A stretch of 44,680 bases of DNA. Origin: a virus. The position numbers and the translations under genes are program-made. Below are positions 1,497 to 41,165 of the stretch, one piece after another. Every line of letters begins with the position of its first letter. Positions within the stretch are counted from its first letter, which is position 1. The stretch lies in IMG/VR virus record IMGVR_UViG_3300033068_000459, positions 1-44,680 of that record, one strand, 5' to 3'. Under the pieces are notes generated by a model. The model was not told the origin of the DNA, searched no databases, and saw nothing but the letters and a program-made list of their open reading frames with translations.

Positions 1497-1963
1497 CCAG
1501 AAAACGCACAGTACGTAGGGTATGGCAGAAGGTAAACCCAATCACTCATGCAGTGGCTGGGGCGTCTATCAAGCCAAGGTCGGAGCTTGACAAACTTCTG
1601 ATGCGCGAGCTTTCCGCCTTGGACGACATGACCCATGGAAAAGCCAGCCTGCAACAGTGGCACGACCTGGCGAACGTGGTTAACCTATGCGAAACGCTTG
1701 CGCATGAGAAAGTCGGGGCGGAGGCTTTGGAATCTTGCCGGACGGCGCAAGATGCGCTGATCGAGGCCGCGAAGAGGTTTCAGGAAACGCAGCGGATGGG
1801 CTTGTCAGGCATCGGGATTCAGGCCCTGCGGGATGTGATTTCGTATCACGACCTACAGCGCTCCAGCATCCCTCGAAGCCAGTACGAGGCGGCTATCCGG
1901 CTGACTGCGGCGCGGGTAAAAAGTGGGTACGCTACGGTTGATCTTGGGGAGATGCTCGGTTAA
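1493..1963 (+). CDS. Hypothetical protein with an arginine-rich N-terminus (MTRKRTVRRVWQK); last gene before the ORF-free region
   Basis: ATGA overlap with the upstream gene. 156 aa. No recognised catalytic motif. Its position at the early/late boundary suggests a regulator, but this is inference only. Confidence 0.7.
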   Translation: MTRKRTVRRVWQKVNPITHAVAGASIKPRSELDKLLMRELSALDDMTHGKASLQQWHDLANVVNLCETLAHEKVGAEALESCRTAQDALIEAAKRFQETQRMGLSGIGIQALRDVISYHDLQRSSIPRSQYEAAIRLTAARVKSGYATVDLGEMLG

Positions 1964-2004
1964 AATTTGCCACGGCCTGAGTAGGATACGCCGTCAATCT
2001 GCTC

Positions 2005-2027
2005 TGACACCCCGGAAAGACGGGGAC
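2005..2027 (+). repeat. Hairpin repeat copy 1: TGACACCCCGGAAAGACGGGGAC
   Basis: 5-bp stem CCCCG/CGGGG with loop GAAAGA. Two further copies lie downstream. Confidence 0.9.
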
Positions 2028-2161
2028 GAATTTGAGACTTTGCTGCCGGGCTGGTCACCTACACCGTAAACACAGCATCCCCCGTATGAGTCGGCTAACG
2101 ACGGGGCGTCAGTCACAGGACATAGTCGCGGGCGAGCGCGCCGCAATGGTTGTGTCAGCGT

Positions 2162-2184
2162 TGACACCTCGGAGAGACGGGGAT
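2162..2184 (+). repeat. Hairpin repeat copy 2: TGACACCTCGGAGAGACGGGGAT
   Basis: Same element. The C>T change in the stem keeps pairing as a U-G wobble. The loop GAGAGA remains all purine. Confidence 0.9.
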
Positions 2185-2328
2185 GAACAGAAAAGGCTGG
2201 ATGACTTCATCCTTCAAGACGGCCTCTAAATGTCTACGAAGGGTGTCACTCGACAGGCGACCGGTCCTGGGCGGGCTGTGCAATTGAGCCATATCACAGA
2301 GTGCGAGCTGCATCGGCCAACAGATCAG

Positions 2329-2351
2329 TGACACCCCGGAAAGACGGGGAC
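2329..2351 (+). repeat. Hairpin repeat copy 3: TGACACCCCGGAAAGACGGGGAC
   Basis: Identical to copy 1. Confidence 0.9.
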
Positions 2352-2863
2352 TATCACATAGGCGGCGGCGTGGAAAGCAGACACGCACAAAACCCGAATG
2401 TACGTGACCTCCAGCGCGTTGAGTAGGGATGGAGATAGCTGGGTTAGCGTCCAGCCCGCCTATTTGATGGACCATGAAGACTTCGGATTGCGCTTACTCC
2501 TAGCATCGGTAAGACGATAGGCAGCTACACAGGTGACGAGTTTGGGGTTGCTCCCAAGCGCGTAGCTGGCGCCAAAAAATCCACCCCCTTAAGCAAGGGG
2601 AAGTCCGAAGCATTGATGTGCCATGAAGCCTCAGACCTAAAAGCGTCCGCACCCTTGACGCACGGTATCCAGTCCGCAGAGTAGGGTAGGTCTGAGACTT
2701 GATGGTGAGCATTTCATGCGATTGGTATAAGATGGACACAAGGTTGCCTCAGTGTCCCAAGGGTTCACGGCCAGAATTGGCAACTAAAGACCGTGAGAAG
2801 CGAAAACCCGGAAGGGTCGTGCGAGATTCCTGATAAACGCCGTCTTTCACCATCAACCCATTC

Positions 2864-3301
2864 GCTGTCTTAGCTCAATTGGTAGAGCACCATACTGTAT
2901 AATGTATGTATGCACTACAACACTATGCGATACCGCCGAAGAATGGCGGAAATGAAACGGATTCTTGGCGGTCAATGCGTGGGGTGCGGGTCTGTAGATT
3001 GTTTGGAGATCCACCACAAAGTACCGGCTGATAAGTCCTTCACTCTTTCCCTTGAATTTGATAAGCCATGGAATGAAATTGAGTTAGAGCTTCGCAAATG
3101 TGAGTTGAGGTGCAAGGCTTGTCATAAGCTTGAACATGCTGCGAAGCATGGATTGGGGATGTATTCCCATCACAAGTGCCGATGTGATGTTTGCAAAAAA
3201 GCATGGAGCATTGCAACCAAGAAATACAAGCAAAAGTCCAAAGAAAAACGGCTAGCCCAAAAAATGGGAGGTCCTTGGTTCGATTCCTAGAGGCAGCACC
3301 A
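2864..3301 (+). tRNA. tRNA gene split by a ~370-nt insertion in the anticodon arm (identity not assignable)
   Basis: 5' half 2864-~2896: acceptor GCTGTCT, TA, D-arm GCTC-AATTGGTA-GAGC, A, then CCATA... 3' half ~3263-3301: ATGG-GAGGTC, T-arm CTTGG-TTCGATT-CCTAG (one T-T mismatch), acceptor AGGCAGC (7/7 pairs with the 5' strand, one G-U), discriminator A, and an encoded CCA. Confidence 0.55.
2910..3290 (+). CDS. HNH endonuclease located inside the split tRNA
   Basis: Motifs CVGCGS...EIHHKVP...CKACHKLEH, plus a C-terminal HHKCRCDVCK zinc-type motif. Visibly AT-richer than the flanks (by eye). The last ~9 codons and the TAG stop lie in the tRNA variable loop and T-arm. Confidence 0.85.
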   Translation: MHYNTMRYRRRMAEMKRILGGQCVGCGSVDCLEIHHKVPADKSFTLSLEFDKPWNEIELELRKCELRCKACHKLEHAAKHGLGMYSHHKCRCDVCKKAWSIATKKYKQKSKEKRLAQKMGGPWFDS

Positions 3302-3380
3302 AATACTAAATTCCCCATTGCAATGATGGGAGTTATAATTCCTAATACGTGCGATTAGACCGCACTATTAAGGGGTTCAA

Positions 3381-3536
3381 ATGAGTGATTTGCAAGGTAC
3401 GGCTAGTGATGCGCGGATGAAAATTCAAATCACCCGGGCTGCAACTGGCGCGGTTGAAGATTACGAATTGATCCTAACTCCGCTTCCAATCGTCCAAGAA
3501 ACCGAGGGCGATCAGCCCGAAAAGGATAGCCAATGA
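3381..3536 (+). CDS. Small hypothetical protein (51 aa)
   Basis: AAGGGG lies upstream of the ATG. The stop overlaps the next ATG (ATGA). Below the cutoff of the ORF track; translated by hand. Confidence 0.45.
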   Translation: MSDLQGTASDARMKIQITRAATGAVEDYELILTPLPIVQETEGDQPEKDSQ

Positions 3537-4114
3537 GCCTCGTAACTCACTCCGTCGCCGCGCAAAATGCCGCAACTGATGCCGTCACCGCGCAGATCGG
3601 CGCATCCGGCAACTTGGCCTTTCGATTGGCTGGGACCATTGGGTCTCCCGGCGCAGTGGCTGCTACCTTGGCGCTGTCGGCTACCGCATTCGGTGCTGCA
3701 ACTGGTGGCGTGGCAACTACCAACGCGATCACCACGAACACCAACGTTGTCGGCAATGCCTCCCCAGTGGCTACGGCAACTCTCCAGACTTCGGGCGGTA
3801 CTCCGGTGATTCACTTTGCTGTGGCGGCTTCTGTGACCACGACCATTACGGGATCGTCTGGCGCGGCAACGATCACGGTTGGCTCTGCCACTGGCTTGGC
3901 TAGTGGCATGAATGTGAGCGGCACGGGCATTGCGTCTGGCGCTTCTATTGTCAACATCACCGGCACCACTGTCACGTTGTCTGCGAACAACACGGGCGCA
4001 GTTTCTGGATCTGGCACTTTCGTGGCTGACATGACGGTCACAAACGGCCTGACATTTGCCCCCGGCGATACCGTGAGCTGCTCAAGTCTGACTTATCGTG
4101 CATTGATCGCATAA
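3533..4114 (+). CDS. Ala/Thr/Gly-rich conserved phage protein, function unknown (possibly virion or fibre associated)
   Basis: 193 aa. The N-terminal pattern AQNAATDAVTAQIGASGNLAF...ATAFGAATGG resembles a recurrent phage family that I cannot name. Confidence 0.6.
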   Translation: MSLVTHSVAAQNAATDAVTAQIGASGNLAFRLAGTIGSPGAVAATLALSATAFGAATGGVATTNAITTNTNVVGNASPVATATLQTSGGTPVIHFAVAASVTTTITGSSGAATITVGSATGLASGMNVSGTGIASGASIVNITGTTVTLSANNTGAVSGSGTFVADMTVTNGLTFAPGDTVSCSSLTYRALIA

Positions 4115-4125
4115 AGGGGTAAAGC

Positions 4126-5940
4126 GTGGCAACCCCGACGCTGCTGAGTGTCAGTAACGTCGCGCTTCCTAACACTGCCGACTCAGGAAACGTAAGCGTT
4201 ACCGCCCCGACTGGGGCGAATGCCTGTGTCATCGGCGGGACGTTCTACGTCAGCGATAACAGCGTTGTCACGAGCCTAACGGGCTCTCAGCTAACGACAA
4301 CGACGAACGGCGGTCTGCGCACAGCTACGCCTAGCGGCGGGAACTACATGAGTTCCTATGCCCAGGCATTCCAAGTCACGGCGACCGGGTCACAGACCAT
4401 CCGGCTCCAAAAGACCGGGGGCTACTCCGAAGGGCCAACCTGCCAAATTGCATGGCTGACGGTTGATGATCCAACCGATTTTGTCAGGACGGGCGGCTTT
4501 CTGATTGACAGTCAGAACAGCTCACCGGATACCCTGACAGTCACGCTCAATAGTGCTATTACCGATCTTGTGCTCGGTATGTTTGGCACCGATGGTAGCT
4601 CTGCCGATCCTACTGCCCCGACTGGCACGACCCAACAAGGGACGATGCAGACGACGCAGTTTGACAAGTCGATCACGTTCACTGTCAACAGCCCGGGCGC
4701 ATCCACGACGACGATCACGGCAGGTAGTAGGGCTTTTCCTACACTGTTTGGCATTTCGCTTAAGGCTGGCGGCGGCGGAGCCACAACTCACGCAGCTACT
4801 GGCGCATTGGTCGGCTCCGGCTCTACGGTGTCTGGATCGTCGGCAAGAACTCGGTCGCATGGATCGGGCGGTACGCTTACCGGCCCTGGTTCTGCGATTG
4901 TTGGAAGTTCGCAACACAATGCGCCTCACGCCTCCAGCGCGGTATTGTCCGGCGCTGGAGCATTGGTTTCGGGATCAGCAAGCAGGACTAGGCAGCATGC
5001 CACCTCGGGAATTTTGGTGGGGTCGGGTGCTGCTGTATCGGGATCAGCCAATCGAACGCGTAGCCACGCGGGAGCTGGCGCGCTATCTGGTCTAGGGTCT
5101 TCGATTTCTGGATCTGCCAACAAAACGCGTCAGCACATTGGATCGGGGGCGCTTACGGGCCCCGGCTCGGCTGTTTCTGGGTCCGCAACAAGATCAAAAA
5201 TCCATGCTTCTAGCGGCGTCCTGATCGGTCTCGGTTCGGATATAGATGGAGGCGGAGCTAGAACAAGGCAGCATCCAGCATCCGCCATTCTGATCGGCCC
5301 AGGATCGACGATTCAAGGCGCTGCAAACCGAAGTGCCCCAGGTGTCCATAACGCCACTGGATCGCTTGTCGGCAAGGGTTCGGCGGTTTCAGGAGCTGCT
5401 GCACGGTCGCATATCTTCACCGTCACTGGCGCGCTGATTGGGCCGGGCTCCTACATCAGCGGCGCTGCCTCCCGAACAACGGGGGCCGTATCGCATAACG
5501 CTACGGGTGTTCTTTCTGGGCAGGGATCGGCGGTCGCTGGTACATCGGCCAGAAAGCGCACATTTGCATCATCCGGCACCCTCACAGGACAAGGCGCTAG
5601 GGTTGTCGGGACTTCCGCGAGGAAGCGGACATTTGCAGTTACTGGGGTACTGATCGGTCAAGGCTCTGCTGTTTCGGGGTCTGCTACCCGCTTCCGAGTT
5701 CATGCCGTCTCTGGTGCTTTGGTAGGCCCTGGAGCGTCTATTTCAGGGCTGGCAAGCCGAGTCAATGCGCCTGTTTCCCATGACGCCACGGCCAATCTGA
5801 TCGGTCAGGGATCATTTGTATCTGCGCAAGCCCAACTGAGCGGGTTCACGATTATCATTCAAGATTACAGGATGGTAGTTAAACCGCCACGACGAAACTG
5901 GATTGCCCAGCCGCCGCGCCGCAACTGGACTGCAAGATGA
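4126..5940 (+). CDS. Large repeat protein: N-terminal ~220-aa domain, ~15 tandem 23-residue repeats, duplicated PPRRNW tail
   Basis: GTG start. 604 aa. Repeat consensus is H-x3-G-x-L-x-G-x-G-S-x-V-S-G-S-A-x-R-T-R-x. The C-terminus reads VKPPRRNWIAQPPRRNWTAR. Confidence 0.7.
   Translation: MATPTLLSVSNVALPNTADSGNVSVTAPTGANACVIGGTFYVSDNSVVTSLTGSQLTTTTNGGLRTATPSGGNYMSSYAQAFQVTATGSQTIRLQKTGGYSEGPTCQIAWLTVDDPTDFVRTGGFLIDSQNSSPDTLTVTLNSAITDLVLGMFGTDGSSADPTAPTGTTQQGTMQTTQFDKSITFTVNSPGASTTTITAGSRAFPTLFGISLKAGGGGATTHAATGALVGSGSTVSGSSARTRSHGSGGTLTGPGSAIVGSSQHNAPHASSAVLSGAGALVSGSASRTRQHATSGILVGSGAAVSGSANRTRSHAGAGALSGLGSSISGSANKTRQHIGSGALTGPGSAVSGSATRSKIHASSGVLIGLGSDIDGGGARTRQHPASAILIGPGSTIQGAANRSAPGVHNATGSLVGKGSAVSGAAARSHIFTVTGALIGPGSYISGAASRTTGAVSHNATGVLSGQGSAVAGTSARKRTFASSGTLTGQGARVVGTSARKRTFAVTGVLIGQGSAVSGSATRFRVHAVSGALVGPGASISGLASRVNAPVSHDATANLIGQGSFVSAQAQLSGFTIIIQDYRMVVKPPRRNWIAQPPRRNWTAR
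4788..5838. repeat. Degenerate ~69-nt coding tandem repeats (~15 units)
   Basis: The periodicity is read from the translated protein. The DNA copies have diverged. Confidence 0.8.
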
Positions 5941-40300: not shown

Positions 40301-40656
40301 GGGATCACCTTTCTTTCCATTCGTCTATTGGCTTCCACGGTCCGCCATACTTCAATCTTTGCTTGAGCGCCGACAATCAGCCATCTCAACCGCTCTTCTT
40401 CCTCAACCGCAGCGCGCAAGCCTTTGAGTAGAGCCTGATATTCGGTGTCAGCGTAGGCGTCTCGTTCTTGCGCACCGATAGCAGATGTACCAGAAACCTC
40501 GGCGGCTTTCATGCAAAGCGCTTTCTTGCTTTTGCGGTACTCCTCAATATAAATTCTTTCAGCTTTGGCTTTGGCGTAAACCGCAGCGTTATCGCGAATA
40601 AAATCGAGAGCCCGAAACACATTAAATTCGGCATCTTGATTCATAGCCAAGCCCAT
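40297..40656 (-). CDS. Hypothetical protein (119 aa)
   Basis: Part of the operon chain; helical. Confidence 0.55.
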   Translation of the reverse strand: MGLAMNQDAEFNVFRALDFIRDNAAVYAKAKAERIYIEEYRKSKKALCMKAAEVSGTSAIGAQERDAYADTEYQALLKGLRAAVEEEERLRWLIVGAQAKIEVWRTVEANRRMERKVIP

Positions 40657-41165
40657 GTAACTCGTTTTGCAATAGCGTAGGCATACGAATAAACAATGCC
40701 ATGCTTCCGGCCTGCATCGGCCACCTTCATTCCAGAATCAAAATCAGCGCGAAAAGCTAAAATTTTTTCCTTGCTGTACTTATTTGTTCTGCATCGCTCG
40801 CCGCGAATGCTTGTACCGTGATGGACGGTGTCGGACATGTTCCCTCGACGGGTGTCAATGCGAAGGTTTTGCCAACAATTATTTTTCTTGTTCCCATCGT
40901 TGTGACAAACGTCCATTCCTTCTGGAATCAAGGAAATAAAAGCAGATGCAACAAGCCGATGAACAGTGCAATCCTTTTTTTTGGAATTTCGGCAAAGGCT
41001 GACAATCATGTAACCGCTATTGTTGCTGCGCTGACTTAATACCTTGAACGGAGTTGCTCCAAAGGCAGGCGCAACACGCATTACCCGTCCAAGACTAGAA
41101 ACGTGGTATTCCGGCCATGCTGGTATCTCACGCCACTCTTCTTGATGAAATTCAAAAGCGCTCAC
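40641..41165 (-). CDS. HNH homing endonuclease (NUMOD4 + HNH_3-like)
   Basis: EEWREIPAWPEYHVSSLGRV (NUMOD4-like), then TVHRLVASAF...VCHNDGNKKNN. AT-rich relative to its neighbours (by eye). Confidence 0.8.
   Translation of the reverse strand: MSAFEFHQEEWREIPAWPEYHVSSLGRVMRVAPAFGATPFKVLSQRSNNSGYMIVSLCRNSKKKDCTVHRLVASAFISLIPEGMDVCHNDGNKKNNCWQNLRIDTRRGNMSDTVHHGTSIRGERCRTNKYSKEKILAFRADFDSGMKVADAGRKHGIVYSYAYAIAKRVTWAWL

Follow-up and report, generated by a model that had tools for sequence, protein, structure and literature searches.

The stretch analysed here, referred to as the window, is a viral sequence of 44,680 nucleotides (nt), IMG/VR record IMGVR_UViG_3300033068_000459, and the element in question is a transfer RNA (tRNA) gene on its plus strand that is divided in the anticodon arm by an open reading frame (ORF) for an HNH homing endonuclease. 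The 5′ half (tRNA positions 1–33) occupies 2864–2896 and is identified by sequence reading, by identity to an intact gene of IMG/VR contig L025 and by the Rfam tRNA model. It consists of the acceptor strand GCTGTCT (2864–2870), a TA linker (2871–2872), the D-arm GCTC-AATTGGTA-GAGC (2873–2888), A26 (2889), the 5′ strand of the anticodon stem, CCATA (2890–2894), and CT, corresponding to C32 and T33 (2895–2896). The 3′ half, also on the plus strand (3264–3301), is identified by sequence reading, the Rfam tRNA model and acceptor pairing, and runs from ATGGG at tRNA positions 39–43 (3264–3268) through the variable loop AGGTC (3269–3273), the T-arm CTTGG-TTCGATT-CCTAG (3274–3290) and the acceptor strand AGGCAGC (3291–3297) to ACCA, the discriminator A with an encoded CCA (3298–3301). 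Both halves had been recognized in a preliminary description made without database searches, and our reading of the sequence places them at the same positions on either side of the ORF. Their acceptor strands pair at 7/7 positions, as that description held, with one T:G wobble among them, and the D-stem is paired at 4/4. In the T-stem, where 4/5 positions pair, T3276 stands opposite T3288, the base with which the HNH ORF's TAG stop codon begins. Related phage tRNAs that share this 3′ end have paired T-stems of the form CTAGG/CCTAG or CTTGG/CCAAG. The halves had been called undecayed, which is correct for the acceptor, D-arm, T-loop and CCA but not for the T-stem, and no tRNA is called at normal thresholds. 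With the region divided at the junction, each half is matched by the Rfam tRNA model: 2864–2900/2905 at model positions 1–36/40 (~17 bits) and 3259–3298 at model positions 33–71 (14.9 bits); because of these separate matches and a 26-nt identity with L025, the halves are not a chance resemblance. The insert had also been described as rich in AT, in agreement with a guanine-plus-cytosine (GC) fraction of 0.43–0.46 in the split region versus 0.55–0.62 in its flanks. Just 5′ of the variable loop, sequence reading finds a small plus-strand hairpin, CCCA-AAAAA-TGGG (3256–3268), possibly a remnant anticodon arm whose shortened loop has no anticodon.

The first 26 nt of the 5′ half are identical (26/26) to an intact tRNA-Thr(UGU) gene of L025, GCTGTCTTAGCTCAATTGGTAGAGCACGTGATTTGTAATCTCGGGGTTGTGGGTTCAATTCCTACAGGCAGC. 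A search of IMG/VR with the 5′-half pattern returned 12 matches, of which 12/12 carry a TGT anticodon loop by inspection, and the three on which ARAGORN was run were all called tRNA-Thr(tgt). Two intact tRNA-Thr genes, those of L021 and L025, use the acceptor pair GCTGTCT/AGGCAGC too, down to its T:G wobble. By these resemblances the split gene is of the threonine type, with an acceptor as in phage tRNA-Thr(UGU). Its amino-acid identity, which the preliminary description could not assign, is therefore narrowed to threonine by the 5′-half and acceptor matches; the anticodon itself is gone, as alignment to intact tRNA-Thr genes places AAA at the site of TGT.

The HNH ORF extends from 2910 to 3290 on the plus strand and encodes 126 residues, with its TAG stop (3288–3290) in the 3′ strand of the T-stem, in full agreement with the first reading. 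It is supported by the ORF list, PHROG, Pfam and a family alignment. The match to PHROG 4234 ('HNH endonuclease') covers the full length (residues 3–113, E=4e-16), the Pfam HNH match is weak (E=0.13, below cut-off), and no solved structure is detectably related to the ORF by sequence. Residues C23, C26, H35, H36, C68, C71, H72 and H76 are invariant across the family, as are the pattern Cys-x2-Cys ... HH ... Cys-x2-Cys-H-x3-H and a C-terminal motif, H-G-x2-M-Y-x4-C-R-C-x2-C. Conservation of the protein begins at Met1 (MHYNT) and ends at residue ~113–115 (~3250), beyond which the tails differ in every homologue. Because they all differ, the last 11 residues of the window protein (…QKMGGPWFDS) are taken as read-through into the tRNA 3′ half and not as part of the enzyme; the last ~11 codons and the TAG do fall in that half, which had been proposed to supply the C-terminus and stop. 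Compared with L001, the closest relative (85–86% protein identity), the proportion of nonsynonymous differences (pN) is 0.07 and 22/31 fourfold-degenerate sites are different. Across all family pairs pN is 0.07–0.35 and synonymous sites are saturated. Judged by this substitution pattern, the ORF is an intact nuclease gene under strong purifying selection, and because the fourfold sites are saturated against L001 there is no sign of nucleotide-level constraint on it. In a library of 1.84 billion proteins the close family comprises 20 representatives at E<=1e-30 and the wider superfamily 4,166 at E<=1e-10; IMG/VR contains no member of the close family, and GTDB only two weak partial matches. Many family proteins in the databases end in tRNA-derived peptide tails, for example …VGFEPT, …VVGSIPT and …AASSILAPGSS. 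A packaging-type HNH, of which HK97 gp74 is an example, was considered since the genes of L001 and L006 are near terminase genes, and was set aside since relatives lie in tRNA arrays far from packaging genes.

At the left junction, a position scan across loci finds a perfect −10 hexamer, TATAAT (2898–2903, plus strand), 6 nt upstream of the ATG. The hexamer is TATAAT in L001 as well and CATAAT/TACAAT in L002/L007, in each case ending 6–7 nt before the ATG, and a comparably good hexamer at that place is found at 0.4% of random window positions. L002 and L007 also have a perfect TTGACA at 17-nt spacing (TTGACA-17-TAcAAT, scan score 11/12), the −35 region of the window is poor (2/6), and no Shine-Dalgarno sequence precedes the start codons in the window, L001, L002 or L007. 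When eight loci are aligned at the ATG, GG(T/C)AGA(G/A)C is common to all, and in six of them a pentamer of variable sequence comes next, after which stands CTGTA(y)AAT, exact or varied. L002 and L007 share an identical 14-mer, TTGACAGGTAGAGC, and their proteins, 48% and 63% identical to that of the window, are among the most divergent close members. This predicted promoter suggests that transcription begins at or beside the A of the AUG, giving a leaderless HNH mRNA; it would be made from the former D-arm 3′ strand, the 5′ strand of the anticodon stem and the anticodon loop. An extended −10 element (TGnTATAAT) in the window was proposed and withdrawn, as the TG directly abuts the hexamer and is not canonical.

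Relatives of the HNH gene at tRNA loci

Close relatives for which the DNA is readable are nearly always found in, beside or overlapping tRNA genes, often those of tRNA-Thr, and the tRNA-linked loci of metagenomic origin (L003, L004, L010–L013 and L037–L041) illustrate how varied these arrangements are. L041 has the order tRNA-Thr(cgt), HNH, tRNA-Thr(tgt), with the HNH stop at positions 8–10 of the downstream tRNA; its two tRNA-Thr genes differ in their acceptor stems. In L037 an intact tRNA-Thr(tgt) gene (2837–2913, Rfam 57.9 bits) shares its initial 38 nt with the HNH ORF (2501–2875), whose TAA stop coincides with tRNA positions 36–38, in the anticodon loop; the shared DNA thus specifies a protein tail and, at the same time, the 5′ half of a tRNA that looks functional. 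A tRNA-Thr(tgt) gene begins 3 nt past the HNH stop in L011, is located just 5′ of the HNH gene in L012, and lies ~40 nt upstream of the HNH ATG in L038. An intact tRNA starts ~6 nt past the conserved domain in L039 and is followed by tRNA-Thr(ggt); positions 692–763 of that locus are a full tRNA (Rfam 48.9 bits), missed by ARAGORN, where the called HNH ORF has its C-terminal extension. The ORF of L003 runs into a minus-strand tRNA-Thr, and L010 and L013 involve other tRNAs. Transfer-messenger RNA (tmRNA) genes were also observed: a permuted, two-piece tmRNA of alpha-proteobacterial type is found at 7–337 of L010, a short metagenomic contig, directly 5′ of tRNA-Lys and the HNH homologue, and an annotated tmRNA adjoins the homologue in Stenotrophomonas phage Marzo.

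Other loci are nested as in the window, with acceptor strands GCCGGCC/GGCCGGC in L006 (7/7), GCCCTTT/TGGGGGC in L001 (6/7 with two wobbles) and GCCTGCG/CGCCGGC in L004/L005 (6/7). An anticodon stem could not be rebuilt in any of the nested loci, and L004 and L006 have lost the D-stem's 3′ strand as well. The position at which the 5′ half ends varies, being ~33 in the window and L001, 30 in L037, 31 in L011 and ~20, within the D-loop, in L004 and L006. In L002, L007, L038 and L039 only GGTAGAGC..CTGTAyAAT is left of the 5′ half, and in L037 and L011 the 5′ halves are orphans with no matching 3′ half in the DNA at hand. Six different tRNA 5′ halves stand before family members. The varied break positions, orphans and relics are as expected if insertion was followed by decay, and scatter of this kind would not be seen with a site-specific intron. 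In L007 the HNH stop codon is directly followed by a truncated minus-strand tRNA (941–975; reverse complement GCCAGCCTAGCTCAATTGGTAGAGC…), of which only a 5′ half is detectable.

The association extends to distant homologues in cultured phages, where 7/7 that were inspected directly adjoin or overlap annotated tRNA genes. These homologues belong to Mycobacterium phages Bricole and MkaliMitinis3, Stenotrophomonas phages Marzo and BUCTxx99, Xanthomonas phage LucasX, Streptomyces phage TunaTartare and Curtobacterium phage Yappy. The HNH family is sporadic and occurs in unrelated backbones, which are myovirus-type in the window, P22-like in L001, and those of phages of actinobacteria and Xanthomonadaceae.

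Probable insertion into the tRNA gene and its alternatives

The locus is probably the product of a selfish HNH homing-endonuclease gene that entered a phage tRNA gene of the threonine type at its anticodon region and inactivated the tRNA. Among the options offered by the preliminary description, an insertion that killed a phage tRNA was the first, and it is the one favoured by the anatomy of the locus, the protein family and the association with tRNA genes. We infer what the nuclease cuts, how it homes, that the promoter is used and that the tRNA has lost its function, as follows. The nuclease would cut intact tRNA genes, probably those of tRNA-Thr near the anticodon arm, in the genomes of competing phages that lack the HNH gene, and repair of the break would copy the gene into the cut genome. 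In the window, the gene would have landed inside its own target with an untidy junction, creating a disrupted site that would now be immune to cutting. The former anticodon-loop region would supply the −10 element, the nuclease would be made from a leaderless mRNA, and translation would continue into the tRNA 3′ half up to the TAG created by the T-stem mismatch. The phage would have lost the function of this tRNA and, because no other tRNA was detected in the window, would rely on the tRNA-Thr of its host. Six different 5′ halves together with saturated ORFs point to repeated, fairly recent insertions followed by decay, in which the portion of the 5′ half that serves as a promoter would outlast the rest.

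Several observations weigh against this account. The halves look fresh, with a perfect D-arm and T-loop, a 7/7 acceptor and an encoded CCA, even though the synonymous sites of the window and L001 HNH genes are saturated; either insertion has been recurrent and recent in each lineage, as the account assumes, or something preserves the halves. No relative of the phage without the HNH gene, and with it no empty site, was found. Comparison with relatives that carry the uninterrupted tRNA at this site had been suggested as a check, and the search for them yielded none: the matches that blastn and tblastn returned among cultured phages were all remote and non-syntenic, and an IMG/VR scan with the upstream protein gave no relative. 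Finally, neither simple decay nor a promoter by itself explains why the octamer GGTAGAGC is kept in the promoter spacer of deeply diverged relatives. By analogy, and as speculation, the octamer might be an operator that resembles the target of the nuclease, or a recombination arm. The autorepression of I-TevI is the model for the operator idea.

This octamer leads to a possibility that is compatible with insertion and was assessed separately, to which we give tentative and limited credence: the tRNA-like flanks may be kept as working parts of a mobile cassette. The 5′ half would be a promoter and possibly an operator, bound by the nuclease through its resemblance to the target as in the I-TevI model, and both halves would act as generic homology arms for recombination into different tRNA genes. 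Such upkeep would account for the presence of GG(T/C)AGA(G/A)C in 8/8 aligned loci, and of CTGTA(y)AAT, exact or varied, in 6, despite the synonymous saturation of the ORFs, for the identical 14-mer in L002 and L007 despite their divergent HNH proteins, and for the conserved spacing from the −10 element to the ATG; the six different tRNA 5′ halves that precede the family are also in its favour. However, the −10 element is missing in L003, L004, L006, L037 and L041, an intact tRNA takes the place of a relic upstream in L010, L012, L013 and L041, and recent independent insertions could give the same picture.

It is unlikely that the halves are instead the remains of two neighbouring, paralogous tRNA-Thr genes flanking a free-standing HNH gene, of which the upstream one has lost its 3′ part and the downstream one its 5′ part. 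The arrangement of L041, with tRNA-Thr(cgt) and tRNA-Thr(tgt) on the two sides of the HNH gene, is what this history would start from, and the ORFs of L037, L039 and L041 run straight into an intact downstream tRNA. The orphan 5′ halves of L037 and L011, the mismatched anticodon-stem strands of L001 with its 6/7, twice-wobbled acceptor, and the small hairpin that the window's 3′ part has at the place of an anticodon arm are consistent with it too. Against two genes stand the 7/7 acceptor of the window, which has the same pair and T:G wobble as the intact tRNA-Thr genes of L021 and L025, and the 7/7 acceptor of L006, which has a different sequence. Chance complementarity of paralogues is improbable because the tRNA-Thr genes flanking the HNH gene in L041 differ in their acceptor stems.

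Least probable, and very unlikely, is a tRNA that still functions, with RNA-level excision or bypass of its ~365-nt insert by some route undescribed in bacteria or phages, such as a ribozyme overlapping the ORF, cuts by host nucleases with RtcB-type ligation, or assembly of the halves in trans. The intact acceptor pairing, D-arm, T-loop and CCA would suit a working tRNA, as would the second 7/7 split, of different acceptor sequence, at L006 and the persistence of halves despite the saturated synonymous sites of the ORFs. The predicted fold of the 438-nt precursor also closes the acceptor stem (z = −2.7), which it does because the acceptor strands are already complementary. Over the whole window, ARAGORN reported 0 tRNA genes with default settings, as it did with introns allowed at the default threshold, and Rfam at its gathering score found no tRNA. 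The proposed check with ARAGORN's intron option therefore came out negative; only when relaxed to -ps90 did the program return a contrived, poor tRNA-Tyr with a false long variable arm. Running ARAGORN on junctions joined by brute force was uninformative, and because it accepts hundreds of such products we adopted a strict cloverleaf enumeration of all 45 junction pairs that give a 74–77 nt product whose variable loop has 4 or 5 nt. The best of these products reaches 3/5 anticodon-stem pairs. The register chosen by Infernal, with AUGGG at 39–43 against CCAUA at 27–31, has 2/5 pairs, and the alternative with AATGG reaches 4/5 at the cost of a 6-nt variable loop of non-canonical geometry, so the earlier remark that a clean anticodon stem cannot be reconstructed stands. 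Such a tRNA would, in addition, have no Thr anticodon and a mismatched T-stem.

The search for a splicing mechanism was equally negative. Four permissive Rfam runs over 1900–3700 found no group I or other ribozyme family at E<=10 and returned chance matches only (one, to Plastid-ycf2, is the T-arm read in reverse complement); ribozyme and intron families were absent at gathering score from the whole window and at E<=1 from 11 related loci. A scan of junctions 2885–2915 x 3239–3275 for a bulge-helix-bulge motif (3-nt bulge, 4-bp helix, 3-nt bulge) gave 0 matches, the mean in shuffles being 0.12. Outside the conserved ORF the insert retains only ~13 nt (2897–2909) and ~7 nt (3257–3263), ~20 nt together, and it was rightly described as having essentially no non-coding sequence. 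Scans against PHROGs or Pfam, which covered 31 ORFs of the window, identified no RNA ligase or splicing endonuclease. Break positions that vary by locus, the loss of D-stems in L004 and L006, the existence of the same ORF in free-standing form and its lack of nucleotide-level conservation also argue against a functional tRNA. An intron reading of the insert is not supported. The second option of the preliminary description, a catalytic RNA overlapping the ORF, fails on the missing ribozyme match, the unconstrained nucleotides, the free-standing homologues and the unrestored anticodon arm. Nothing found here speaks positively for its third, that a split tRNA is matured by another route: neither a bulge-helix-bulge nor an anticodon was found, nor a ligase or splicing endonuclease among the tested ORFs. 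An attP site formed with the 3′ end of a host tRNA was rejected, given that the 5′ half is present as well and that no integrase occurs among the tested ORFs.

Surroundings in the window

The window carries a myovirus-type module with small and large terminase, portal, protease, major head, sheath and tape measure genes, along with baseplate, fibre, amidase, primosomal and Sak4-like proteins; none of its 31 screened ORFs is an integrase. Downstream of the split gene, 13 nt past the CCA end, a consensus scan alone indicates a terminator-like hairpin, CCCATTGCAATGATGGG, with a T-rich tail (3314–3330, plus strand). Directly 5′ of the split tRNA, ~900 nt (1964–2863) have no credible ORF and contain three copies of a 33-nt element with the hairpin CCCCGGAAAGACGGGG, at 1998, 2155 and 2322 (spacing 157 and 167 nt). 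This region was considered as the missing ribozyme or as a GOLLD/ROOL-like RNA and rejected, for it matches nothing in Rfam, folds with a z-score of only −1.2 and does not resemble the other loci. In L004, ~1 kb upstream of the tRNA cluster is likewise without called genes.

Repeats are found on both sides of the split gene. A tandem array of an 18-nt unit (x 11.5, 94% matches) occupies 1–207, and an array with 12/18/30-nt periodicity at 1234–1487 encodes a Gly-Asp-Gly-Ser-Gly-Tyr repeat protein in ORF 1215–1496. Between the split tRNA and the terminase genes, a 604-residue ORF (4126–5940) consists mostly of ~30-residue repeats (…GSGSAVSGSA.RTR.H…) and has no PHROG match. A second gene of homing-endonuclease type, at 40641–41165 on the minus strand, matches Pfam HNH_3 and NUMOD4 and is unrelated to the split-tRNA ORF; because of it, the phage carries at least two selfish nuclease genes.

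Comparison with known mobile nucleases and split tRNAs

For genome annotation, the locus exposes a trap, in that tRNA halves around a small ORF resemble an intron and yet are a disrupted gene. Reading frames of the HNH family also routinely enter neighbouring tRNAs, which gives their proteins tRNA-derived peptide tails. The series of related loci outlines an evolutionary path by which an insertion would split the tRNA, the 5′ half would be reused as the promoter of a leaderless mRNA, and the remainder would decay. Phage tRNAs are now regarded as counter-defence tools. Because they serve in this way, selfish nucleases that cut, move and destroy tRNAs bear on the rate at which tRNA repertoires turn over. 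If the tRNA were re-joined after all, the locus would be far more important, as a ribozyme-free tRNA intron or a split tRNA of the bacterial world; with it, an intron-like element would be known from a phage tRNA gene for the first time. What the evidence indicates at present is the reverse. In the literature, searched with incomplete coverage, we found no report of a homing endonuclease gene dividing a tRNA gene of a phage, which is weak evidence of novelty.

Split tRNAs and tRNAs with bulge-helix-bulge introns are known from archaea, Nanoarchaeum among others (PMC3218864, PMC4033280). There a bulge-helix-bulge junction is processed by a splicing endonuclease and a ligase. The window resembles these systems in having 5′ and 3′ halves with complementary acceptor strands that are apart in the DNA. 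In contrast, it has no bulge-helix-bulge, and its context is of bacterial type, with an alpha-type tmRNA and sigma-70-like promoters in relatives and a Sphingopyxis phage as the nearest match. The likeness to group I introns of tRNA genes is that of a nuclease ORF in an insertion at the anticodon region, and a nuclease that targets a tRNA anticodon region is an established precedent. The preliminary description took bacterial tRNA group I introns to be without ORFs, which is not strictly true. Unlike such introns, the insert of the window is without a ribozyme core or a restorable anticodon arm and is nearly without non-coding RNA. According to a review, all phage introns known up to 2014 lay in protein-coding genes (PMC3984707).

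Another known system is MobE of Aeromonas phage Aeh1, an HNH homing endonuclease whose gene lies in nrdA and gives rise to a 'genes-in-pieces' ribonucleotide reductase (PMC3045599). In both cases a homing endonuclease gene of free-standing type splits a useful gene without an intron or intein. The difference is in the outcome: the protein fragments of Aeh1 reassemble and function is kept, whereas a tRNA cut in the anticodon arm needs ligation, and in the window the anticodon is gone.

SegB of T4 and F-TflI/II/IV of T5 are free-standing homing endonucleases encoded in phage tRNA clusters, and SegB recognises a conserved T-loop motif in tRNA genes and spreads with its flanks by break repair, a process termed intronless homing (PMC2330249). 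Like them, the relatives of the window HNH are small nuclease genes among phage tRNA genes. SegB, a GIY-YIG enzyme, comes from a nuclease family other than HNH. Its target is in the T-loop motif, whereas the putative link of the window HNH to tRNA-Thr is by association only. The SegB and F-Tfl genes also lie between tRNA genes, in contrast to the window HNH, which is inside one and splits it, and the window has no tRNA cluster. The locus is most likely a variant of the known tRNA-cluster homing endonucleases and, in essence, a fairly ordinary gene disruption. It delimits a small HNH family specialised in phage tRNA loci, through which the concept developed for SegB and F-Tfl reaches another nuclease family and many host phyla.

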